NCBI GenBank assembly: GCA_947085325.1
Contig: CAMTVY010000001.1
Span: 15,837-79,836 of the forward strand
Length of the DNA stretch: 64,000 nt
Origin: an uncultured Gammaproteobacteria bacterium
GTDB taxonomy: Bacteria > Pseudomonadota > Gammaproteobacteria > SURF-13
Reading direction: 5' to 3'
The position numbers were made by a program, and so were the translations under genes. This document shows positions 1-59,116 of this stretch, piece by piece (position 1 is the first letter of the stretch; each line of letters begins with the position of its first letter). The notes beneath the pieces were generated by a model that was given only the letters and a program-made list of their open reading frames with translations, was not told where the DNA came from and did not search any database.

Positions 1-50
1 GTTGCGGCGGAATGGACGGATTTTATTATGCGCGCTTACGTAAGCACTAA
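1..50 (+). CDS. rsmB: 3' end of 16S rRNA (cytosine967-C5)-methyltransferase RsmB; partial, continues upstream of the window
   Basis: The frame starting at nt 3 reads CGGMDGFYYARLRKH* with TAA at 48-50. The DGF(F/Y)YA-x-L C-terminus is typical of RsmB/Sun. The rsmB-DUF4390-ntrYX-trkA order is a known synteny. Confidence 0.5.
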   Translation, partial: CGGMDGFYYARLRKH

Positions 51-56
51 CAGGAG

Positions 57-203
57 GTTGAAAAAGGCCATCCATGGCCTTTTTCAACCCGCAAAGCAAA
101 AAGCGCGATTTTTGCTTTGCTTCATTTTTCAAGCACATAAACCGTGCTTGAAAAATGGCGGTGCATCCCTGCACCGCGCGCAGGCTGTTTTTCAACAGCC
201 TGC
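57..203 (+). repeat. Repeat family A, copy 1: 147-bp element of five consecutive hairpins
   Basis: Palindromes at 58-87 (TTGAAAAAGGCCAT-CC-ATGGCCTTTTTCAA), 91-120, 126-154, 158-177 and 180-203. A near-identical copy lies in the opposite window orientation at 58970-59116. The TTGAAAAA/TTTTTCAA motif occurs five times. Confidence 0.9.
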
Positions 204-4367: not shown

Positions 4368-5741
4368 ATGAAAATCATTATTCTCGGTGCAGGTCAGGTC
4401 GGATCGTCCGTGGCCGCCAATCTGGTGGGCGAGGCCAACGACATCACGGTGGTGGACAGCGATGCCAGGCGTCTGCAGGAGCTGCAGGTGCGGTTTGATC
4501 TGCGCACGGTGCAGGGGCACGCGTCACATCCCGAGGTGTTGTTGCGCGCGGGTGCAGCCGATGCCGATATCATTCTCGCCGTAACCAACAGCGACGAGAC
4601 CAATATGGTGGCCTGTCAGGTCGCCAGCATATTGTTTAACACGCCCACCAAGATCGCGCGCGTGCGCCAGCAGGAGTATCTGTCTTCGCCGCAACTGTTC
4701 GGCCCCAAGGCCTTTCCGGTGGATATGCTGATCAGCCCCGAGCAGCTGGTCACCAATTATGTGCAACACCTGATCGAATATCCGGGCGCACTGCAGGTGC
4801 TCGACTTCGCCGGTGGGCGTGTGCAGCTGGTCGCGGTGCGGGCCTACTACGGCGGGCCGCTGGTAGGGCGTGAGCTACGCGAGCTGCGCGAGCACATGCC
4901 CGGCGTGGAGACGCGCGTGGTGGCCATCTACCGGCGTGGGCAATCCATCATACCGCAGGGCGTCACGGTCATCGAGGCCGACGACGAAGTATTTTTCATC
5001 GCCGCCACCAAGCACTGCCGCGCCGTGATGAGCGAACTGCGCCGCCTCGACCAGCCCTACAAGCGCATCATGATTGCGGGCGGCGGCAACATCGGCAAGC
5101 GTCTCGCCATCGCGCTGGAAAAGGACTATCAGGTCAAGCTTATCGAGCACAATCCGAGCCGGGCGCGCGCTATTTCCGAGGAGTTGCATAACACCACCGT
5201 GCTCGAAGGTGACGCCACGGATGAAGAGCTGTTGCAAGAGGAGGGCATCGGGGATATCGACGTGTTTTGCGCGTTGACCAACGACGATGAGGACAACATC
5301 CTGTCGGCGATGCTGGCCAAGCGCATGGGCGCACGCAAGGTGATGGCGCTCATCAACCGCGCCTCGTATGTGGATCTGATGGAAAGCGGCAGCATTGATA
5401 TTGCGATCTCGCCGCAGCAGGCGATGATTGGAACCCTGCTGGCGCATGTGCGGCGTGGCGACGTCGCGGTGGTGCATTCGCTGCGGCGTGGTGCGGCCGA
5501 GGCGATTGAGGCGGTGGCGCACGGTGACAGCCGTTCATCCAAAGTGGTGGGGCGCTCCATCGAAGACTTCAAGCTGCCGGTGGGCGCCACCATCGGCGCT
5601 ATCGTGCGCGGGGACGAGGTGCTGATCGCCCATCACGATACTGTGATTCAGTCGGAAGACCACGTCATCATGTTCCTGGTGGACAAGAAGCGCATCTCCG
5701 ATATCGAGCGCCTGTTCCAGGTTGGCGTGACGTTTATTTAA
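4368..5741 (+). CDS. trkA: Trk system potassium uptake protein TrkA (two NAD-binding/RCK units)
   Basis: [19 protein letters not shown] Rossmann motif and a second [14 protein letters not shown] motif; 457 aa. An AAGGTGA Shine-Dalgarno (SD) sequence precedes ATG 4368. Confidence 0.93.
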
Positions 5742-5847
5742 AACAGATGCAAGATACAAGATACAAGATACAAATAGAGTTCCACAGCGACCGCACCACT
5801 GTTGCTGGGAACTTGTACCTTGTATCTTGTACCTTGTAACTGTACTT
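5742..5847 (+). repeat. Heptad-periodic intercistronic hairpin, family D copy 1 (trkA stop to trkH start)
   Basis: Left arm ATGCAAG-ATACAAG-ATACAAG-ATACAAA. Right arm CTTGTAC-CTTGTAT-CTTGTAC-CTTGTAA-CTGTACTT-ATG. The arms are 22/25 complementary, with an inner stem GTTCC(A)CAGC/GCTGGGAAC. Confidence 0.85.
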
Positions 5848-7302
5848 ATGCAATTCACCGTCATTCAACGCATCATGGGTTTGCTGCTGATGCTGTTCAG
5901 CATCAGCATGCTGCCGCCGCTGCTGCTTGCCTGGCTCCATCATGACAGGATGATGGATGCTTTTTTATGGTCGTACGGCATCACGCTCGTCAGTGGTTTG
6001 GTGCTGTGGCTGCCGGTGCGCGCCGTTAAAAAAGAGCTGCGTCTGCGCGACGGCTTTGTGATCGTGAGCCTGTTCTGGGCGCTGCTTGCCTTGTTCGGCG
6101 CTTTGCCGTTCATGTTCGGGCACGATACGGCGTCGTTTACAGACGCCTATTTTGAAACCATGTCCGGCCTGACCACGACAGGCTCGACGATTCTGGTCGG
6201 GCTGGATCAGTTGCCCATGTCCATCAATCTGTGGCGCGGGATTTTGCAGTTTCTGGGCGGCATGGGCATCGTGGTATTGGCGGTGGCCATTCTGCCCATG
6301 CTGGGCGTGGGCGGCATGCAGCTCTACAAGGCCGAAACGCCGGGTCCGATGAAGGACAGCAAGCTCACGCCGCGCATCAAGGAAACCGCCAAGGCGCTGT
6401 GGTACATCTACGTCGGCCTCGTGGTGTTGTGCGCCGCTGCGCTGTGGCTCGCCGGCATGACGCCGTTTGATGCCATTATGCACAGCTTTACCGCTGTGTC
6501 CACGGCGGGTTTCTCCAGCCACGATGCCAGCATCGCCTACTTCAGCAGCCCGCTGATTGAAATGATTCTGGTGCTGTTCATGCTGCTCGGCGGTATCAAT
6601 TTTGCGTTGCACTTTCTTGTGCTGCGCGGCCGCAGCCTGCGCGTCTATTGGCAGGATTCCGAGTTCCGTGTCCATATGGGCATCTTCGTGGCAGCCACTG
6701 TTGCGGTGACGGCCTACCTTGCCTGGAGCCACTACTATGTGGACATCTGGCAGTCATTGCGCTACGCCGTGTTTCAGGTGGCGTCGATGGTGACCACCAC
6801 CGGCTATGTCAGCGCCGACTATGGCGCCTGGCCGCCGGTGCTGGGTGCGCTGCTGATGGTGCTGGCCTTCATTGGCGGCTCGGCCGGCTCCACTTCAGGC
6901 GGTATCAAGGTGGTGCGCGCCGTGCTGCTGTTCAAGCAGACCCTGTGCGAGATACGGCGCCTGATGCACCCCAGCGCGCTGGTGCCGCTCAAGCTTTCCG
7001 GCAAGGTGGTGCCGGATCGTACCGTGGCCGCGATATCGGCATTTTTCGCCACCTACCTCGCCTGCTTCGCCCTCATCGGGCTGGCCATTTCGGCCCAGGG
7101 TGTGGAAATGGTGACGGCGTTCAGCGCAACGGCGGCAGCGATCAACAATCTCGGCCCGGGTTTGGGCGGGGTGGGGCCTGCGGCCAATTATGCGGCGCTG
7201 CCGGAGGCCGCGAAATGGATGCTTTCCTTTGCCATGCTGCTCGGGCGTCTGGAAATATTTACCTTGCTGGTGCTGCTGACGCCTGCCTTCTGGCGTAAAT
7301 AA
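5848..7302 (+). CDS. trkH: Trk system potassium uptake protein TrkH
   Basis: Polytopic membrane protein. The N-terminus MQFTVIQRIMGLLLMLFSISMLPP matches the canonical TrkH N-terminus and it follows trkA. Start chosen at ATG 5848, which has no SD; the tracked ATG 5827 lies inside the hairpin. Confidence 0.88.
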   Translation: MQFTVIQRIMGLLLMLFSISMLPPLLLAWLHHDRMMDAFLWSYGITLVSGLVLWLPVRAVKKELRLRDGFVIVSLFWALLALFGALPFMFGHDTASFTDAYFETMSGLTTTGSTILVGLDQLPMSINLWRGILQFLGGMGIVVLAVAILPMLGVGGMQLYKAETPGPMKDSKLTPRIKETAKALWYIYVGLVVLCAAALWLAGMTPFDAIMHSFTAVSTAGFSSHDASIAYFSSPLIEMILVLFMLLGGINFALHFLVLRGRSLRVYWQDSEFRVHMGIFVAATVAVTAYLAWSHYYVDIWQSLRYAVFQVASMVTTTGYVSADYGAWPPVLGALLMVLAFIGGSAGSTSGGIKVVRAVLLFKQTLCEIRRLMHPSALVPLKLSGKVVPDRTVAAISAFFATYLACFALIGLAISAQGVEMVTAFSATAAAINNLGPGLGGVGPAANYAALPEAAKWMLSFAMLLGRLEIFTLLVLLTPAFWRK

Positions 7303-7312
7303 ACACAGTGTC

Positions 7313-7630
7313 ATGGGCATGATCGAAAACCTTGAGGCGATGCTGGCCAGGGGTGACGACTCGGCGCTGCTGCGCTACAGCCTGGGCAATGCGTATTTCA
7401 AACAAGGCGACTACGCCAAGGCGTGCGAACATTTTGCGTGCGCGGTGACGCTGGATGCGCGTTACTCCGCAGCTTGGAAAGGCTACGCACAGGCGCTTGC
7501 CGCCGCAGAGCGCAGCGAAGACGCCGTGCGCGCCTACGAAACGGGGATCCGCGTCGCGGAGGACAAGGGCGACCTGCAAGCAGCGAAAGAAATGAAAGTA
7601 TTTTTGAAGCGGCTGCAAAAAAATTCTTGA
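7313..7630 (+). CDS. Small tetratricopeptide-repeat protein
   Basis: 105 aa with TPR-like helices (LGNAYFKQGDYAKACEHFACAVTLDARYSAAWKGYAQAL). Confidence 0.6.
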   Translation: MGMIENLEAMLARGDDSALLRYSLGNAYFKQGDYAKACEHFACAVTLDARYSAAWKGYAQALAAAERSEDAVRAYETGIRVAEDKGDLQAAKEMKVFLKRLQKNS

Positions 7631-7631
7631 T

Positions 7632-7739
7632 CCCCTCCCCTTTCCAGGGGGAGGGCTAGGGTGGGGGTAAATGTTTGCGCCAGGCTTTAAGCCTCCAACT
7701 CCAACCTCCATCCCCACCTTCCCCCTGGAAGGGGAAAGG
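7632..7739. repeat. Inverted pair of G/C-tract REP-like units between convergent genes
   Basis: CCCCTCCCCTTTCCAGGGGGAGGGCTAGGGTGGGGG starts at 7632. A diverged inverted copy, CCATCCCCACCTTCCCCCTGGAAGGGGAAAGG, lies at 7708-7739. Each unit is internally palindromic. Confidence 0.75.
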
Positions 7740-7746
7740 AAAATTT

Positions 7747-7998
7747 TCACGCCTCCAACTCATCCTCGCTGTCCGGCAGACTCGCAGAATAATCCGTGCC
7801 CAGCACCGTGCGCGCACGCGAGACAAACTCCTCGTCTACCTGCAACTTGATCCCGCCCACAGCAATACTGTACAGCCAGTCGGTCTGCACCAGATGCTCG
7901 TCGGCAATGTGGCAGGGGATGCCCTCGGCCTCCAGGCTGCCCTTGGCGATGTGCGCCAGCGGCATGAGATCAAACTGGGCCACCGTCACCAATTTCAT
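7747..7998 (-). CDS. DUF2007 domain-containing protein (putative signal-transducing protein)
   Basis: 83 aa. MKLVTVAQFDLMPLAHIAKGSLEAEGIPCHIADEH matches the DUF2007 pattern. Its start overlaps the ttcA stop (4-nt overlap). Confidence 0.65.
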   Translation of the reverse strand: MKLVTVAQFDLMPLAHIAKGSLEAEGIPCHIADEHLVQTDWLYSIAVGGIKLQVDEEFVSRARTVLGTDYSASLPDSEDELEA

Positions 7999-9801: not shown

Positions 9802-9994
9802 ATCTACTGCGCGTCTTTGATGCAGGTGCGTGCGGTGCTCGGAATCCGGGGCCGCGTAGCGGCAGACTGGAATGTACACTCCGGTTCCTGCGCTCCGCCG
9901 CCCCTGCCTGCGACGTACAGGGATGTACTAGTGTCGCGGGAGGCAGGATGCCGGGAGCGACAAAGCCGCTCGCTACGATTTCTGGCGCTATGTA
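9787..9994 (+). mobile_element. MITE family B, copy 1 (208 bp, TA target-site duplication)
   Basis: TA|CATAGCACCA at 9787-9798 and TGGCGCTATG|TA at 9983-9994, a 9/10 TIR flanked by TA. The interior is shared with 31016-31159 apart from two indels. Confidence 0.8.
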
Positions 9995-9998
9995 TAAA
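9970..9998 (+). promoter_or_regulatory. Candidate outward-facing sigma70-like promoter at the right end of MITE B1 (TCGCTA-N17-TATAAA)
   Basis: -35-like TCGCTA at 9970-9975, a 17-nt spacer, and -10 TATAAA at 9993-9998 straddling the MITE/flank junction, 65 nt upstream of the hemF ATG. The same arrangement occurs in copy B2. Confidence 0.3.
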
Positions 9999-10059
9999 AC
10001 CCTTCTTGCAGGGAGCGAAGTGCCCACCTAATATGCGAGTATTCGAATCAGGCTCATAG

Positions 10060-18094: not shown

Positions 18095-21000
18095 ATGCGC
18101 GCTACCCGCTACAGACTGCACGCTGCGTTACACCGGCTGATGGCGGCAAGCCATATCACGCTGCACCATACCTGGAAGATGGCCATCGGCGCGACTGCCG
18201 TCATCGTTATCACGGCGGGGGTGATTCTCGGTGTGGCGCGTCTGCTGTCGCCCATGCTGGGCGAATTTCGCGGCGACATCGAGGCCTGGGCCAGCGCTGC
18301 CACTGGCCAGCCGGTGAAGATCGGTGGACTCGAGGCGGACTGGTCGGGGTGGCTGCCGCAGATCAAGCTGACCGATGTGCGCGTGTACGCCACGCAGGGC
18401 GAGCAGGTGCTGCTACGATTCAGTGATACGCTGATGCGCATTGACCCGCTGATTTATCTGCGCCACAGGCGCGTTGAGCCCAGCCATCTGGTGCTGGTGG
18501 GGGTGGATCTGTCGCTCATCCGTACGCCGGAAGGCAGTATCGTGTTGGAAGGATTCGAAGGCCGCGACCTGTCGGATGGCGTGTTCGTGCAATGGTTGTT
18601 ACGACAGGGGCGGCTCGATGTACGGCACAGCCGGGTAGACTGGACCGATCAGGAGACGGGTAAGTCACGGCGGCGTTTCAATGACGTGAGCTTCTTGCTG
18701 CGGACGGATGGTAAGCGACATCAGTTGAATGGCGAACTGGAGTTACCCGGTACACAGCCCGGGCATGTGACGCTCGCGCTCGATTTCGGCGGCGATCTTG
18801 CCGCCCCTGTCAGCTGGGGCGGCAAGATGTACCTGCAAACGCAGGATGTCGACCTGGTACAGGTGCAGGAGTTGCTGCAATGGCCGGGCGCGGTGGCATC
18901 ACAAGGTGCTGTTGATTTCATGCTTTGGGGTGAGTGGAGCGATACACGCCTGCAGCGACTGGAGGGCGAGGCTACGGCGCGCGACGTACGCCTCGTGGCT
19001 GCGGGGAAGCCAGTGTTGGAGGTGCGCCGGGTGAGTACGCAACTGCAGTGGCAGCGGGAAACGTATGGGTGGAATCTTGCGGCCGAGCGTTTTGTGATTG
19101 AGCGTGATACGGTTGCGCCTGCGATACGTTTGGCGGTTGTGTCATCCAAGGCGGCGGATGGATCATCGGTGCTGGATGCGCGTGTGAGCGAGTGGCGCAT
19201 CGAAGATGCCGCCGCACTGCTGCTGGCGACTGGTACGGCAGAGGCAGTGCTGCGAGCGCCACTTACCAGCATGCAGCCACGGGGTATATTGCGTGATGTG
19301 CGCGTGCGCGTTGCGTCACAGTCATCCGGCGGCACTTTCAAGAACTTCTATCTCAGCGCACGGGCCGAGGGTGTGCGTACGCATGCCTTCCAGTCCTTGC
19401 CCGCGCTCGATAATGTCAGTGGTATTTTGCAATGCGATGCAGACTCCGGCAGCTTCGAGATCGACACACATCAGGGGCATGTTGTGTTCAGCGGTCTGCG
19501 CAAGCCGGTGATAATCAAACGTGCAACCGGCACGCTGGGTTGGGTGCGTACGGATCAGGGTTGGCGCGCCGGGATCAAGGGCGTGGAGCTCAATAACGAT
19601 GATCTGAGTGTGCATACCAGCGGTGTGATCGAGTGGCCCCGCGACGGTTCATCCCCGAGCGTCAATCTGCGATCTGATTTTTCCAGCCCCAATATCGGGC
19701 ACCTGCCGGACTATCTGCCGGATGCGTTACCCGCACCAGCGCGCACCTGGGTTACGCGCGCGCTGGTGACAGGTCGCATCCACTCAGGCAGCGCGGTTGT
19801 GCGCGGGCGGCTCAGCGATTTTCCGTTTGATGGCGGCAGCGGGGTGGCCGAGATACGCATGATGCTGAGTGGGGCGGTGCTCGATTATGATCCGGGCTGG
19901 CCGTGGTTGGGAGATGTTGAGGGCGAAGTGATAGTTCGCGGTCGCAGTCTGGAGGTTAATGTTGTCTCCGGGAAAATACTCGACTCCGAAGTAAAGAAGG
20001 TGAGCGCCACGATTCCCGATATGACGCTGAAAGAGCCGCTGCTCACTGTGTTGGGCACAGCACGCGGCGCGGCGACCGATGTGCTGCGCCTGCTGCGCGA
20101 GAGCCCACTCAAGAATACAGTGGCAGGCTACGTGGCGGGCGTGAGTGCACGCGGTGGAATCACGCTCGATCTGGAGTTGTTGATACCGCTTTCCGCCCGG
20201 CCCAACCAGATCAAGGGTGCGTTGGCCTTCAAGGAGGGGGCGCTACGCTATGTGGATAAGCCGCAGGAGCGCGATATCGAGCTCACGCACATCAACGGCA
20301 CGCTCAGCTTCAGCGGCGACTACCATATCACCGGCAATAATATTGACGCCACCCTGTACGGCCAGAAAGTGAAGCTTGCGCTGCGGACGGAAACGTCGGC
20401 TGCGGCAGGCAACGCCAGACAGTTGCTGGCGATCGAGGCACGCGGCAAGACCGATGTTGCCGGTATCGTGCGGCAACTGAAACAGATCGCGCCGGACATG
20501 CAGGCACGCACGTTGGACTGGCTAAGCGGCGACACTGACTGGGTTGGGACGCTGTATCTGCAGGCAGCTGCCGATAATGCCTCTTTTGAGAGTGAGTGGC
20601 GGCTGGCATCTTCGCTGCGGGGTATGGCGCTGAAACTGCCCGACCCGCTCGGCAAACCCGAGACGGAGGCAGTGTCATTCATGGTCGAAAGTGCGCCGGC
20701 CTTAACCCCGCAGAACAGGCGCTTCAACCTGCATTACGGTAAGCGCATAAATGGCGCATTCGAATTAGCGCGCACCAACAAGGTGTGGGAATTGGCGCGT
20801 GGCGAGCTGTATTTTGGTGCGGCCAAGGCGACCTTGCCGCCACAGGGCCTGCGCGTCAGTGGTGAGGTTGAGCGGTTCGCGCTGACAGAGTGGCTGCAAT
20901 TTCTGGCCCAGGGCGACAACCGTGCAGGCGGTTTTACGGACAAGCTCAATGCCGTGGATGTACATGTGGGTGCGCTGGAAGTGTACGGTCAGAATTTCAG

Positions 21001-30252: not shown

Positions 30253-31022
30253 ATATACTCGTATTTGACATCGAGACCGTGCCGGACGTGGAGAGCGGTC
30301 GGCGGCTGTACAAACTTGACGGCCTCAACGACAAGGAAGTCGCCGAGGTGATGTTTCATGCGCGTCGGCAGGAAACCGGAGGCTCTGAATTCCTGCGCCT
30401 GCACCTGCACCGCATCATTGCCATCTCCGCAGTGGTGCGCACGCGCGACAAAGTGAAAGTGTGGTCTCTGGGTGAAGTGGATGCGCCAGAAAAGGAACTG
30501 GTCACACGCTTTTTCGACGGCATCGAAAAATACACGCCGACACTGGTGTCGTGGAACGGCGGCGGCTTTGACCTGCCGGTGCTGCACTATCGCGCACTGC
30601 TGCACGGCGTGGCCGCGCCGAAGTATTGGGATACGGGCGAGGCGGACAGCTCCTTCAAATGGAATAACTACCTCAGCCGCTATCACGCGCGCCATACCGA
30701 TCTCATGGACGTTATTTCCCTGTATCAGCCGCGCGCCACGGCGCCACTGGATGAGATCGCCACGCTGCTCGGCTTCCCCGGCAAGATGGGTATGCACGGC
30801 AGCCAGGTGTGGGACAATTACATGCGCGGCGAGATTGTGAACATCCGCAACTACTGCGAAACGGACGTGCTCAATACCTATCTCGTATATATGCGCTTTG
30901 AATTGATTCGCGGCCACATGACCCAAGAAGAATACGATCTAGAATGCCAGCGGCTGCGTGATGAGCTGGTGCACGAAAATAAACCACATCTACACGAATT
31001 TCTTGCCGCCTGGCGTACATAG
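30249..31022 (+). CDS. Predicted 3'-5' exonuclease related to the PolB exonuclease domain (DEDD family)
   Basis: ExoI VFDIETVP, ExoII WNGGGFDLPVL and ExoIII YCETDV; 257 aa. ATGA overlap with the cysM stop. The last sense codon and the stop codon lie inside MITE B2. Confidence 0.8.
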   Translation: MNILVFDIETVPDVESGRRLYKLDGLNDKEVAEVMFHARRQETGGSEFLRLHLHRIIAISAVVRTRDKVKVWSLGEVDAPEKELVTRFFDGIEKYTPTLVSWNGGGFDLPVLHYRALLHGVAAPKYWDTGEADSSFKWNNYLSRYHARHTDLMDVISLYQPRATAPLDEIATLLGFPGKMGMHGSQVWDNYMRGEIVNIRNYCETDVLNTYLVYMRFELIRGHMTQEEYDLECQRLRDELVHENKPHLHEFLAAWRT

Positions 31023-31159
31023 CGTCATAAATCTACTGCGCGTCTTTGATGCGGGTGCGTGCGGTGCTCGGAATCCTCATGTACTACTTGTACACTCCGG
31101 TTCCTGCGCTCCGCCACCCCCGCCTGAAAGCCGCTCGCTACGATTTCTGGCACTATGTA
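31016..31159 (+). mobile_element. MITE family B, copy 2 (144 bp, TA target-site duplication)
   Basis: TA|CATAGCGTCA at 31016-31027 and TGGCACTATG|TA at 31148-31159. It shares the ATAAATCTACTGCGCGTCTTTGATGC[A/G]GGTGCGTGCGGTGCTCGGAATCC block and the GTACACTCCGGTTCCTGCGCTCCGCC and AAGCCGCTCGCTACGATTTCTGGC blocks with copy 1. Confidence 0.8.
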
Positions 31160-31171: not shown

Positions 31172-31219
31172 CTTACACCTCCTTGCTACTTCTAACTTGC
31201 CACTTGCTACTGCTTCTAA
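31172..31219 (+). repeat. Heptad-periodic pyrimidine-rich leader, family D copy 4 (right arm only), ending at the rlmD ATG
   Basis: CTTGCTA-CTTCTAA-CTTGCCA-CTTGCTA-CTGCTTC-TAA-ATG. The units CTTGCTACT and CTTGCCACT differ by 1 nt from CTCGCTACT and CTCGCCACT in the ftsA/ftsZ element. Confidence 0.7.
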
Positions 31220-42526: not shown

Positions 42527-42620
42527 AAACAGATACAAGATAAAAGATACAAGAGAAAAGACAAGCCAATAATGCTGCAACACTTTCCTCTTTCCTCTTT
42601 GCTCTTTTTTCAGCCCCTCC
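42527..42620 (+). repeat. Heptad-periodic intercistronic element, family D copy 2 (pilC stop to pilD start)
   Basis: TAA-AAACAG-ATACAAG-ATAAAAG-ATACAAG-AGAAAAG-ACAAGCC ... CTCTTTC-CTCTTTG-CTCTTTT-TTCAGCCCCTCC-ATG. The first 30 nt or so are near-identical to copy 1. Confidence 0.8.
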
Positions 42621-53366: not shown

Positions 53367-53462
53367 GGTATTCCTCCTTTAATTGAAGTAGCGAGTAGCG
53401 AGGTGTCAGTGGCGAGTAACTAATTTCTAGCTGCTCGCTACTAGCCACTCGCCACTGTATTT
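53367..53462 (-). repeat. Heptad-periodic intercistronic element, family D copy 3 (ftsA stop to ftsZ start)
   Basis: The minus strand reads TAA-AAATACAG-TGGCGAG-TGGCTAG-TAGCGAG-CAGCTAG-AAATTAG-TTACTCG-CCACTGA-CACCTCG-CTACTCG-CTACTTC-AATTAAAGGAGGAATACC-ATG. It has 9- and 10-bp complementary blocks in an interleaved order. Confidence 0.8.
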
Positions 53463-58969: not shown

Positions 58970-59116
58970 GCAGGCTGTTGAAAAACAGCCTGCGTGCGGT
59001 GCAGGGATGCGCCGCCATTTTTCAGGCACGGTTTATGTGCTTGAAAAATGGAGCAAAGAAAAAACCACGTTTTTTGCTTTGCGGGTTGAAAAAGGCCATG
59101 GATGGCCTTTTTCAAC
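58970..59116 (-). repeat. Repeat family A, copy 2 (147 bp, five hairpins), between murG and murC
   Basis: Its reverse complement aligns along its full length with 57-203, with only a few substitutions plus differences in the loop of hairpin 2. It has the same orientation relative to transcription as copy 1 and starts 6 nt after the murG TAA. Confidence 0.9.

Follow-up and report, generated by a model that had tools for sequence, protein, structure and literature searches.

A dispersed palindromic heptanucleotide repeat, probably a tolerated passenger, in the trkA-trkH gap of an uncultured gammaproteobacterium

We analyzed a 64-kb stretch of DNA (hereafter the window; 64,000 nucleotides, 61% G+C) from an uncultured Gammaproteobacteria bacterium (GenBank assembly GCA_947085325.1, contig CAMTVY010000001.1, positions 15,837 to 79,836 of the forward strand), with attention to a repeat-built palindrome between the genes trkA and trkH. 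Both TrkA and TrkH were matched end to end by NCBIfam, and the N-terminal start of TrkH, MQF(T/L)VIQ, was kept across all orthologues. The trkA stop codon and the trkH start codon are separated by a 106-nt gap that is laid out as follows.

5739-5741, + strand: trkA stop codon TAA; the heptad phase begins inside it (unit AAAACAG, 5740-5746).
5743-5773, + strand: 5' purine-rich arm of the inverted repeat, ACAG ATGCAAG ATACAAG ATACAAG ATACAA, from Tandem Repeats Finder.
5774-5812, + strand: central part not built of heptads, with the inner stem GTTCCACAGCGAC / GTTGCTGGGAAC and the apical loop, from the computed fold.
5813-5843, + strand: 3' pyrimidine-rich arm, TTGTAC CTTGTAT CTTGTAC CTTGTAA CTGT, with perfect 14-nt periodicity.
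5848-5850, + strand: trkH start codon ATG, 4 nt past the stem and without a Shine-Dalgarno motif.

A preliminary description of this DNA had proposed that the whole gap is a single hairpin built from 7-nt units, and the calculations bore this out. Tandem Repeats Finder reported one period-7 array at 5745-5773 (4.1 copies, 95% matches) and a second at 5812-5838 (3.9 copies, 100% periodic at 14 nt). When periods 4-12 were scanned across the whole window, strong arrays occurred at period 7 only (n = 3: both arms of this element and 42580-42611), with period 6 giving one array and the remaining periods none. Runs of at least five AG or CT dinucleotides at 7-nt spacing numbered 2 and 3 in the window, compared with ~0.02-0.03 expected from dinucleotide frequency, a periodicity well above chance. 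The two arms are 87% complementary across 31 nt and differ in purine fraction (0.69 in the first, 0.34 in the second). The minimum free energy of the RNA was -51.0 kcal/mol versus -19.7 ± 3.1 for dinucleotide shuffles (z = -10.2), none of 200 shuffles folded as well, and the fold contains the inner stem that had been described as capping the heptad arms. The stem begins 2 nt past the trkA stop and finishes 4 nt ahead of the trkH start, and its stability is equal on either strand and as DNA.

The absence of a Shine-Dalgarno motif ahead of trkH was likewise confirmed, as GGAG, GAGG and AGGA were not found upstream of the gene. No promoter-like or terminator-like site was found within 5650-5900, and the stem is followed by ACUUAUG with no U-tract, on which grounds an intrinsic terminator was rejected. 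At the gathering score, Rfam 15 gave a sole match in the window, to sX9 at 31079-31152, and none in the trkA-trkH gap. A permissive Rfam scan of 5700-5900 returned only sub-threshold matches to microRNA-precursor hairpins and no K+ or cyclic di-AMP riboswitch.

To place the element in an evolutionary context, we compared 14 distinct orthologous junctions collected by scans of genome and metagenome collections and by look-ups of TrkH homologues. All 14 came from uncultured Gammaproteobacteria, for which the best named relatives by FtsA were Thiohalophilus and Thiohalomonadales (~87% identity). The scan of metagenome contigs with TrkH contributed two useful loci only, L141 and L142 (L numbers are our handles for loci). 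Ten of the 14 gaps held heptad palindromes of at least four unit types, two held palindromes resembling repetitive extragenic palindromic (REP) sequences, and two were empty junctions (TAAATAATG).

Window: heptad palindrome, ATACAAG units.
L158: heptad palindrome, AGAAAAG/ATACAAG units.
L155, L006 and L003: heptad palindrome, TGGCGAG/TAGCGAG units.
L007, L002, L004 and L142: heptad palindrome, GGAAAAG-like units.
L141: heptad palindrome, GGGCTAG units.
L008 and L010: REP-like palindrome with GGTAGG...CCTAC ends, unrelated to the heptads.
L009 and L011: empty junctions, TAA-ATA-ATG and TGA-AATA-ATG.

Gap content did not follow the TrkH tree. TrkH is 98% identical between a locus with the REP-like palindrome (L010) and one with heptads (L141), and 95% identical between a heptad locus (L007) and an empty one (L011). 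The nearest relative at this junction, L155 (TrkH 94%, DNA 86-91% identical to the window), has the same TAA-AACAG left junction as the window, yet carries TGGCGAG units. The window and L158 have a common layout of four units, 'TAGAGT', a loop, four more units and CTG, even though L158 is more distant (TrkH 85%) and its sister L006 (88% DNA identity) has the other unit type; two allele-like types are therefore distributed against the phylogeny. The L155 element aligned to the reverse complement of the L006 element with a score of 99, versus 48 in the same orientation, and the TGGCGAG-type loop and arms at L155 9847-10000 and L006 2877-3000 align only as reverse complements. This opposite orientation reflects, as far as the alignments tell, either an inversion between the arms or an independent insertion.

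Conserved pairing in orthologous gaps had been anticipated, and this held in part: every occupied gap pairs end to end, giving a stem in 12 of 14, but the sequence is not conserved and the other two gaps are empty. Fold z-scores were -7.7 for L006, -5.1 for L007, -7.2 for L003 and -5.0 for the REP-like L010. CAG...CTG termini were present in nearly all of the elements, and the arms remained complementary despite turnover of the units (ATACAAG/CTTGTAT, AGAAAAG/CTTTTCT, TGGCGAG/CTCGCCA). The REP-like palindrome lies at L008 2940-3000 and L010 1362-1435, and the L010 copy pairs the stop region with the start region. At L003, an extra segment of ~130 nt with small hairpins of its own sits in the center of the heptad palindrome (~2030-2150), which suggests a nested insertion into the loop.

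Several functional claims of the preliminary description did not survive this comparison. A conserved or required coupling device is contradicted by the two empty junctions of 3-4 nt, the two REP-like occupants and the difference in unit type at 94% TrkH identity. Initiation without a Shine-Dalgarno motif is not tied to the element, as trkH lacks the motif in all orthologous junctions, filled or empty. Nor is it a special design that one stem has both the stop and the start codon at its base, because any palindrome in a junction of 3-4 nt, the length in relatives without the element, brings this about, and the REP-like palindrome of L010 does likewise. A conserved RNA motif was also rejected, since the orthologous gaps are unalignable or empty and Rfam has no match. 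Judged from these junctions, the hairpin is not a conserved RNA or regulatory device, and the element is dispensable and evolutionarily labile.

With somewhat more confidence than doubt, we read the element as a member of a rapidly evolving family of palindromic heptanucleotide repeats with dispersed copies, an inverted pair resembling the short tandemly repeated repetitive (STRR) sequences of cyanobacteria, that is tolerated as a passenger at a coupled junction. Since trkH has no Shine-Dalgarno motif in any relative, it is presumably translated by termination-reinitiation coupling. The element would be transcribed within the trkA-trkH mRNA and fold into an interrupted hairpin of ~40 bp (~27 + 13 bp), the base of which would leave the trkA stop and the trkH start 6 unpaired nt apart. 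Following established knowledge of translational coupling and ribosome footprints, the palindrome would keep coupling in two ways: it would draw the stop and start codons close to each other, and the first ~10 bp would be melted by a ribosome that terminates at the TAA, freeing the 14 nt upstream of the ATG. Because coupling would be preserved by a palindrome, its insertion would be tolerated, making the element probably a passenger and not a required device.

RNA-level consequences may nonetheless follow by analogy, including RNase III cleavage, altered mRNA stability and translational coupling. The long duplex would be a likely RNase III substrate or barrier to 3' exonucleases. REP sequences, such as those at malE-malF, can stabilize upstream mRNA, and the duplex could shift the trkA:trkH ratio in the manner of these REPs or of RNase III sites in phage T7. 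Other long intercistronic stems include the RNase III hairpins of T7 early mRNA, and shunting or bypass occurs in the cauliflower mosaic virus 35S leader and in T4 gene 60. The present element resembles them in having the stop just 5' of the stem base and the start just 3' of it. Those systems are conserved and experimentally defined, whereas the heptad element is linked to them from its sequence by analogy only.

Counting the trkA-trkH element as copy 1, the window contains five copies, the remainder of which are listed below. NCBIfam confirmed pilC, ftsA, ftsZ and rlmD as the neighboring genes of the first three.

42527-42620, + strand: copy 2, in the pilC-pilD gap, with a purine arm at 42531-42561 (ATACAAG/ATAAAAG/AGAAAAG) and a pyrimidine arm at 42583-42607 (CTTTCCT...).
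53367-53462, - strand: copy 3, of the TGGCGAG/TAGCGAG type, in the ftsA-ftsZ gap after the ftsA TAA and ahead of the Shine-Dalgarno motif AAGGAGG of ftsZ.
31172-31219, + strand: copy 4, a single pyrimidine arm (CTTGCTA CTTCTAA CTTGCCA CTTGCTA CTGCTTC) abutting the rlmD ATG.
7633-7739, no strand assigned: a fifth, degenerate member with a G-rich arm GGGGGAGGGCTAGGGTGGGGGT and a C-rich arm CCTCCAACTCCAACCTCCATCCCCACC (CCTCCAA-type).

A family of four members had been proposed. Copies 1 and 2 are indeed related, as the two gaps, pilC-pilD and trkA-trkH, share the recurrent motif 'CAG ATACAAG AGAAAAG' across several genomes, but copy 2 forms no significant hairpin and the fifth member had been missed. 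The arms of copy 2 are periodic, its fold is not significant (-13.9 kcal/mol, z = -0.9), and its antisense strand folds better (-24.8 versus -13.9 kcal/mol). Its pyrimidine units, when reverse-complemented (AAGAGGA), resemble the purine units AAGAGAA and AAGATAC, and copy 2 looks like a decayed palindrome whose arms no longer pair significantly. Copy 3 folds well (z = -4.6) and is a heptad element in a stop-to-start gap as described, except that it lies on the minus strand and the ftsZ Shine-Dalgarno motif AAGGAGG stays outside the stem. Copy 4 had been correctly recognized as a right arm only, a single pyrimidine arm ahead of rlmD. Three of the four downstream genes at these copies (trkH, pilD and rlmD) have no Shine-Dalgarno motif.

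The fifth member lies between convergent genes, a TPR-repeat gene with its stop at 7630 and a DUF2007 gene with its stop at 7747, which means that the layout is not confined to stop-to-start gaps. Its fold (-66 kcal/mol, z = -5.4) is flanked by an A-run and a T-run and includes G-tracts, and it may act as a bidirectional terminator. It was found in L158/L159 and is absent in L155 and L157, where both genes overlap. The proposal that such sequences are structured intercistronic elements is supported.

Copy 4 comes after the Rfam match to sX9 (RF02228, a Xanthomonas small RNA; 31079-31152, + strand, 59.9 bits versus a gathering score of 44). This match sits within a longer stem (31020-31156) directly 5' of the array before rlmD, and it was unexpected outside Xanthomonadales.

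The orthologues of copies 2 and 3 record a similar history. Copy 3 is kept in L149/L150 (FtsA 97%), with 1 nt differing within the element, and in L164, from the same metagenome-assembled genome as L006, with 96 of 103 positions identical. L151/L152 (FtsA 98%, gap 27-28 nt) and L153/L154 (FtsA 92%, gap 29 nt) lack it, and when the window was aligned to L151 by blastn, the alignment was interrupted precisely where the element lies. The Shine-Dalgarno motif of ftsZ was retained in all relatives compared, with or without copy 3. Filled and empty ftsA-ftsZ sites, TAA|AAATACAG...CTACTT|CAATTAA-AGGAGG versus TAA|CAATTCGTTTTTACC-AGGAGG, revealed no target-site duplication: the empty site reads TAA|CAATTCG..., and a duplicated target was not seen beside the filled site. 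An identity as a miniature inverted-repeat transposable element was rejected for this reason, and the trkA-trkH flanks likewise had no consistent target-site duplication.

At pilC-pilD, L160 (PilD 93%) has the same element and loop as copy 2 but is shorter by exactly 14 nt, or two units, with five substitutions, four of which fall within pyrimidine-arm units. L163 (PilD 78%) has the same junction and the unit order CAG ATACAAG AGAAAAG AGGCAAG AGAAAAG, and it is well paired (-39 kcal/mol). Its variant unit AGGCAAG has CTTGCCT as a complement on the other arm, although relative to the stem base the two are offset by one unit. In the pilC-pilD gap of L164 (~9850-10000), a palindrome of 8-nt units (ACGCAAAG / CTTTGCGT) replaces the heptads.

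As read from these alignments, the three junctions demonstrate that such elements occupy short gaps between genes and gain or lose units in 7- or 14-nt steps. They also demonstrate gain, loss, flipping and replacement at one site over short evolutionary distances. An element can persist for long, slip by units, decay, flip, be lost or be replaced.

The preliminary description knew of no such family in proteobacteria. In fact, inverted heptamer pairs between co-oriented open reading frames (ORFs) have been described in Xanthomonas (Rehm et al. 2015, PMC4692102). Each Xanthomonas genome contains 183-186 arrays of the GGGAATC type, ~90% of them intergenic and mainly between co-oriented ORFs. As in Nostoc, where the intergenic unit is GGGGA(C/T)T, the arrays comprise ~4 tandem 7-nt units each and are dispersed over the genome. 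On the coding strand, the G-rich array typically lies at most 50 bp past a stop and the C-rich array at most 50 bp before a start, with a convergent inverted pair capable of forming a stem-loop in 70-75 cases per genome. Array length and sequence vary at the same intergenic site between X. campestris pv. campestris and X. axonopodis pv. citri. Most arrays are transcribed, no function was found for them, and GGGAATC oligonucleotides form a G-quadruplex (PMC4692102).

Copy 1 has the architectural features of this class. It consists of tandem 7-nt units in arrays of at least two (4.1 and 3.9 copies), the arrays converge with the G- or purine-rich one first, and they are intergenic between co-oriented ORFs with arms no more than 50 bp from stop and start. 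Length and sequence vary among relatives at the one site. Many dispersed genome copies characterize the class, and here there are five in 64 kb and more in relatives. The Xanthomonas unit has a G-tract (GGGNATC), whereas ATACAAG, its partner CTTGTAY, TGGCGAG and AGAAAAG have none, and the G-quadruplex reading is therefore not transferable. The G-tract is a feature of the Xanthomonas/Nostoc sub-type and not of the architecture. Three differences from Xanthomonas are evident: the host here is a relative of Thiohalomonadales, the arrays fill the whole stop-to-start gap, and presence, absence and swapping of unit types are documented at one site. Hence, the element is of an already known kind, the intergenic heptamer repeats of Xanthomonas and cyanobacteria, which are poorly understood.

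Three other repeat classes are similar in part. Cyanobacterial STRR were described by Mazel et al. (1990, as cited in PMC4692102). They are intergenic heptanucleotide arrays of heterocystous cyanobacteria, mainly direct, with several unit families per genome. The heptads share the tandem 7-nt arrays and intergenic location, whereas palindromic pairing and stop/start placement are not known to belong to the STRR definition. Direct TAACTGA arrays of 2-6 units end a few nt before starts in Shine-Dalgarno-poor gaps of Beggiatoaceae, cyanobacteria and Bacteroidetes, with 1 indirect repeat versus 169 direct sets (MacGregor 2015, PMC4679880). Copy 4 has this single-arm layout, whereas copies 1-3 are inverted pairs with variable units and do not belong to the TAACTGA type. 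Finally, REPs, bacterial interspersed mosaic elements and REPINs (PMC3116915) are likewise palindromes scattered through the intercistronic gaps of operons, and relatives differ in whether they carry them. REPs are imperfect palindromes of 20-40 nt that have a conserved GTAG-type head recognized by the REP-associated tyrosine transposase (RAYT) and no tandem heptads, whereas the heptad elements have neither REP feature. A REP/REPIN identity of copy 1 was rejected because the GTAG head is missing and the arms are tandem heptads, in contrast to GGTAGG...CCTAC in L008/L010.

The class also extends to phages. Scanning a collection of 2.9 million viral contigs with three repeats of the pattern TRGCKAG, for which the per-position chance is ~1.5e-11, returned 95 loci, by our estimate beyond chance for a collection of this size. 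Most of these contigs had 59-73% G+C, and many showed the order stop, AGTGGCG-type arm, loop, CTCGCCA-type arm, optional Shine-Dalgarno motif and ATG. PHROG major-head matches identify two contigs, L051 (13.5 kb) and L073 (14.1 kb), as true modules of phage structural genes. They carry palindromic heptad arrays in several inter-ORF gaps, built of the unrelated units TTGGATT, AGTGGCT, GATTGAC, AGTTGCC and AGTGGGC. Some L051 copies have loops in common, which implies that whole elements were copied. The stop codon in L051 and L073 is often embedded in the first unit (e.g., TAGTGGCGAG).

The G/purine-rich arm is almost always 5' and the C/pyrimidine-rich arm 3'. The G-rich arm came first in 53 of 54 non-identical inverted pairs and in 16 of 17 pairs whose unit differs from the search pattern, both counts being uncorrected for relatedness. 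Among 28 distinct two-arm elements in co-oriented contexts, 15 folded better in sense and 13 in antisense, and selection on the sense RNA through G-U pairs was accordingly rejected. ORF-based calling of context on high-GC viral contigs is crude, and we did not rely on the proportions of co-oriented and divergent contexts. The unit signature 'NNNNNAG', valid in the lineage of the window, was rejected as class-wide because it fails for the phage units TTGGATT, CGTGAAT and GCGAATA. A viral scan with three repeats of RTACAAG gave 10 matches, mostly simple direct arrays of low GC and unrelated layout, and was set aside.

BLAST of the pure repeat and of L051 against GenBank phages gave no match, with the caveat that the low-complexity filter may have dropped the repeat query. 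A tblastn search with capsid proteins returned only matches of at most 34% identity. A search of the literature available to us for printed TGGCGAG/CTCGCCA arrays found no papers. Among cultured relatives, Thiohalophilus thiocyanatoxydans (GCA_004366735.1) has a loop-less heptad palindrome at L165 20450-20500, 8 nt after the argJ stop, reading AGGTTCT AGGTCCT AGTTTCT AG AACCTAG AACCTAG AACCTAG.

Several observations weigh against a tolerated passenger. A long palindrome in 12 of 14 gaps is a high proportion for a neutral passenger, and selection for a hairpin could account for it. The polarity amounts to a constraint, for which neutrality gives no explanation. At pilC-pilD, the element persists from the window to L163 (PilD 78%), with its variant unit AGGCAAG matched by CTTGCCT. 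We found neither a target-site duplication nor a transposase nor any other means of mobility, and our statements at the RNA level all derive from sequence. The polarity may reflect a need to keep a C-rich, Rho-loading tract from being exposed, a leader of pyrimidines by the start or the writing of repeats at 3' ends.

The foremost alternative, put forward in the preliminary description and in our view unlikely, is an adaptive intercistronic RNA module. Here the hairpin would be selected for ribosome coupling or shunting, or as an RNase III or stability site setting the trkA:trkH ratio, with the sequence free to vary while the stem is kept. Such selection would account for stems of unrelated sequence joining stop and start in 12 of 14 gaps, for arm complementarity that survives full turnover of the units and for the position of the pyrimidine arm, which is always the one beside the start codon. 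Three of four downstream genes in the window without a Shine-Dalgarno motif, and phage structural operons with such hairpins in most gaps, also fit. However, two relatives have an empty trkA-trkH junction and three an empty ftsA-ftsZ junction, copy 2 folds insignificantly in sense and better in antisense, and the 15 to 13 split of two-arm elements reveals no sense-strand bias. Moreover, the stability of copy 1 is the same for both strands and for DNA, one member separates two convergent genes, and the Shine-Dalgarno motif, where present, lies outside the stem, so that the element simply avoids it.

The same indifference to strand favors a DNA-level product without an RNA role, although we regard this explanation as rather improbable. 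In this case, a process that writes repeats or repairs DNA would have left the arrays behind as scars, either by slippage with intrastrand template switching at quasi-palindromes or by the addition of G-rich heptads to both 3' ends of a break that are then joined. Such a process would give palindromes that, whichever strand is read, begin with the G-rich arm, as in 53 of 54 pairs. It agrees with a copy 1 hairpin equally stable on both strands and as DNA, folding without sense bias, 14-nt steps in unit number between close relatives, the flipped orientation at one site in two genomes and the lack of a target-site duplication between filled and empty ftsA-ftsZ sites. However, the same idiosyncratic unit order (CAG ATACAAG AGAAAAG) recurs across loci and genomes and loops are conserved between L051 copies, which argues for copying of whole elements rather than local growth de novo. 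No candidate enzyme was found.

A broader and quite speculative proposal, to which we give a low probability, is that palindromic heptads constitute a single widespread system, common to bacteria and phages and driven by a mechanism of its own, instead of being simple debris of slippage. In one version, an enzyme may write or copy G-rich 7-nt units onto DNA 3' ends, giving the polarity. In another, the pyrimidine arm may be an initiation enhancer independent of a Shine-Dalgarno motif, masked by the purine arm and perhaps unmasked by a terminating ribosome or by RNase III. If true, either version would be a general means to express cistrons without a Shine-Dalgarno motif, and the allele-like types distributed against phylogeny would reflect active swapping between copies.

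It is very unlikely that the arrays are binding sites in 7-nt register for a protein that binds single-stranded nucleic acid and covers ~7 nt, such as S1 or a cold-shock-domain protein that would act on the pyrimidine arm to enhance translation of genes lacking a Shine-Dalgarno motif. The register is strict, pyrimidine arms adjoin the starts of trkH, pilD and rlmD, and rlmD is preceded by a pyrimidine arm alone. MacGregor proposed such an enhancer role for TAACTGA repeats (PMC4679880), a preprint on Nostoc considers, speculatively, that heptamer repeats may affect translation (bioRxiv 10.1101/2022.06.06.494920), and S1, Csp or CsrA have been proposed as binders (PMC4679880; bioRxiv 10.1101/2022.06.06.494920). 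On the other hand, extreme variability of the units, even in one phage genome (TTGGATT, AGTGGCT, GATTGAC, GGACAAA), argues against a sequence-specific binder, and the pyrimidine arm is locked in the stem in two-arm copies. We know of no binder for heptad arrays.

A transcription terminator or attenuator, or a G-quadruplex element as proposed for the Xanthomonas repeats, agrees with the long stem, with the G-tracts, A-run/T-run flanks and convergent genes of the 7633-7739 member and with the GGGAATC oligonucleotides of Rehm et al., but is highly improbable here: copy 1 has no U-tract and no terminator-like site by scan, trkH has to be co-expressed with trkA, and ATACAAG has no G-tract, making a G-quadruplex impossible for copy 1.

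Other palindromes were observed in the vicinity. A second dispersed repeat family occurs in the window at 47-185 (+ strand) and 58990-59115 (- strand). It is A/T-rich and ~125 nt long, its copies are 88% identical, and it consists of four consecutive small hairpins (e.g., GGTTGAAAAAGGCCAT/ATGGCCTTTTTCAACC). The copy in the murG-murC gap of the dcw cluster is a ~165-nt insertion specific to the source genome; the genes overlap at this junction in L149, L151 and L152. The nearest relative, L149, also has 146 nt of inserted palindrome, not built of heptads, between its zapD and coaE genes (20561-20708), an insertion that is absent from the window. As far as these genomes indicate, intergenic palindrome insertions are common in the lineage. 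An IS3-family insertion sequence (HTH_Tnp_1 + rve) lies between ftsZ and lpxC in L153 (5965-7127; FtsA 92%).

The value of these results is mostly corrective, in that a striking stop-to-start hairpin turns out, on our reading, to be a dispensable and fast-turning-over repeat. Heptamer repeats are a neglected class without an established function in the literature available to us, and they are now seen also in relatives of Thiohalomonadales and on many high-GC phage contigs. New here are the host lineage, the units that do not form G-quadruplexes, the series of gain, loss, flip and slippage, the abundance on phage contigs and a quantified polarity rule. The presence of such a palindrome in cultured T. 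thiocyanatoxydans provides an experimental system. If the polarity reflects Rho avoidance, S1-dependent initiation or a repeat-writing enzyme, it would be of general interest.

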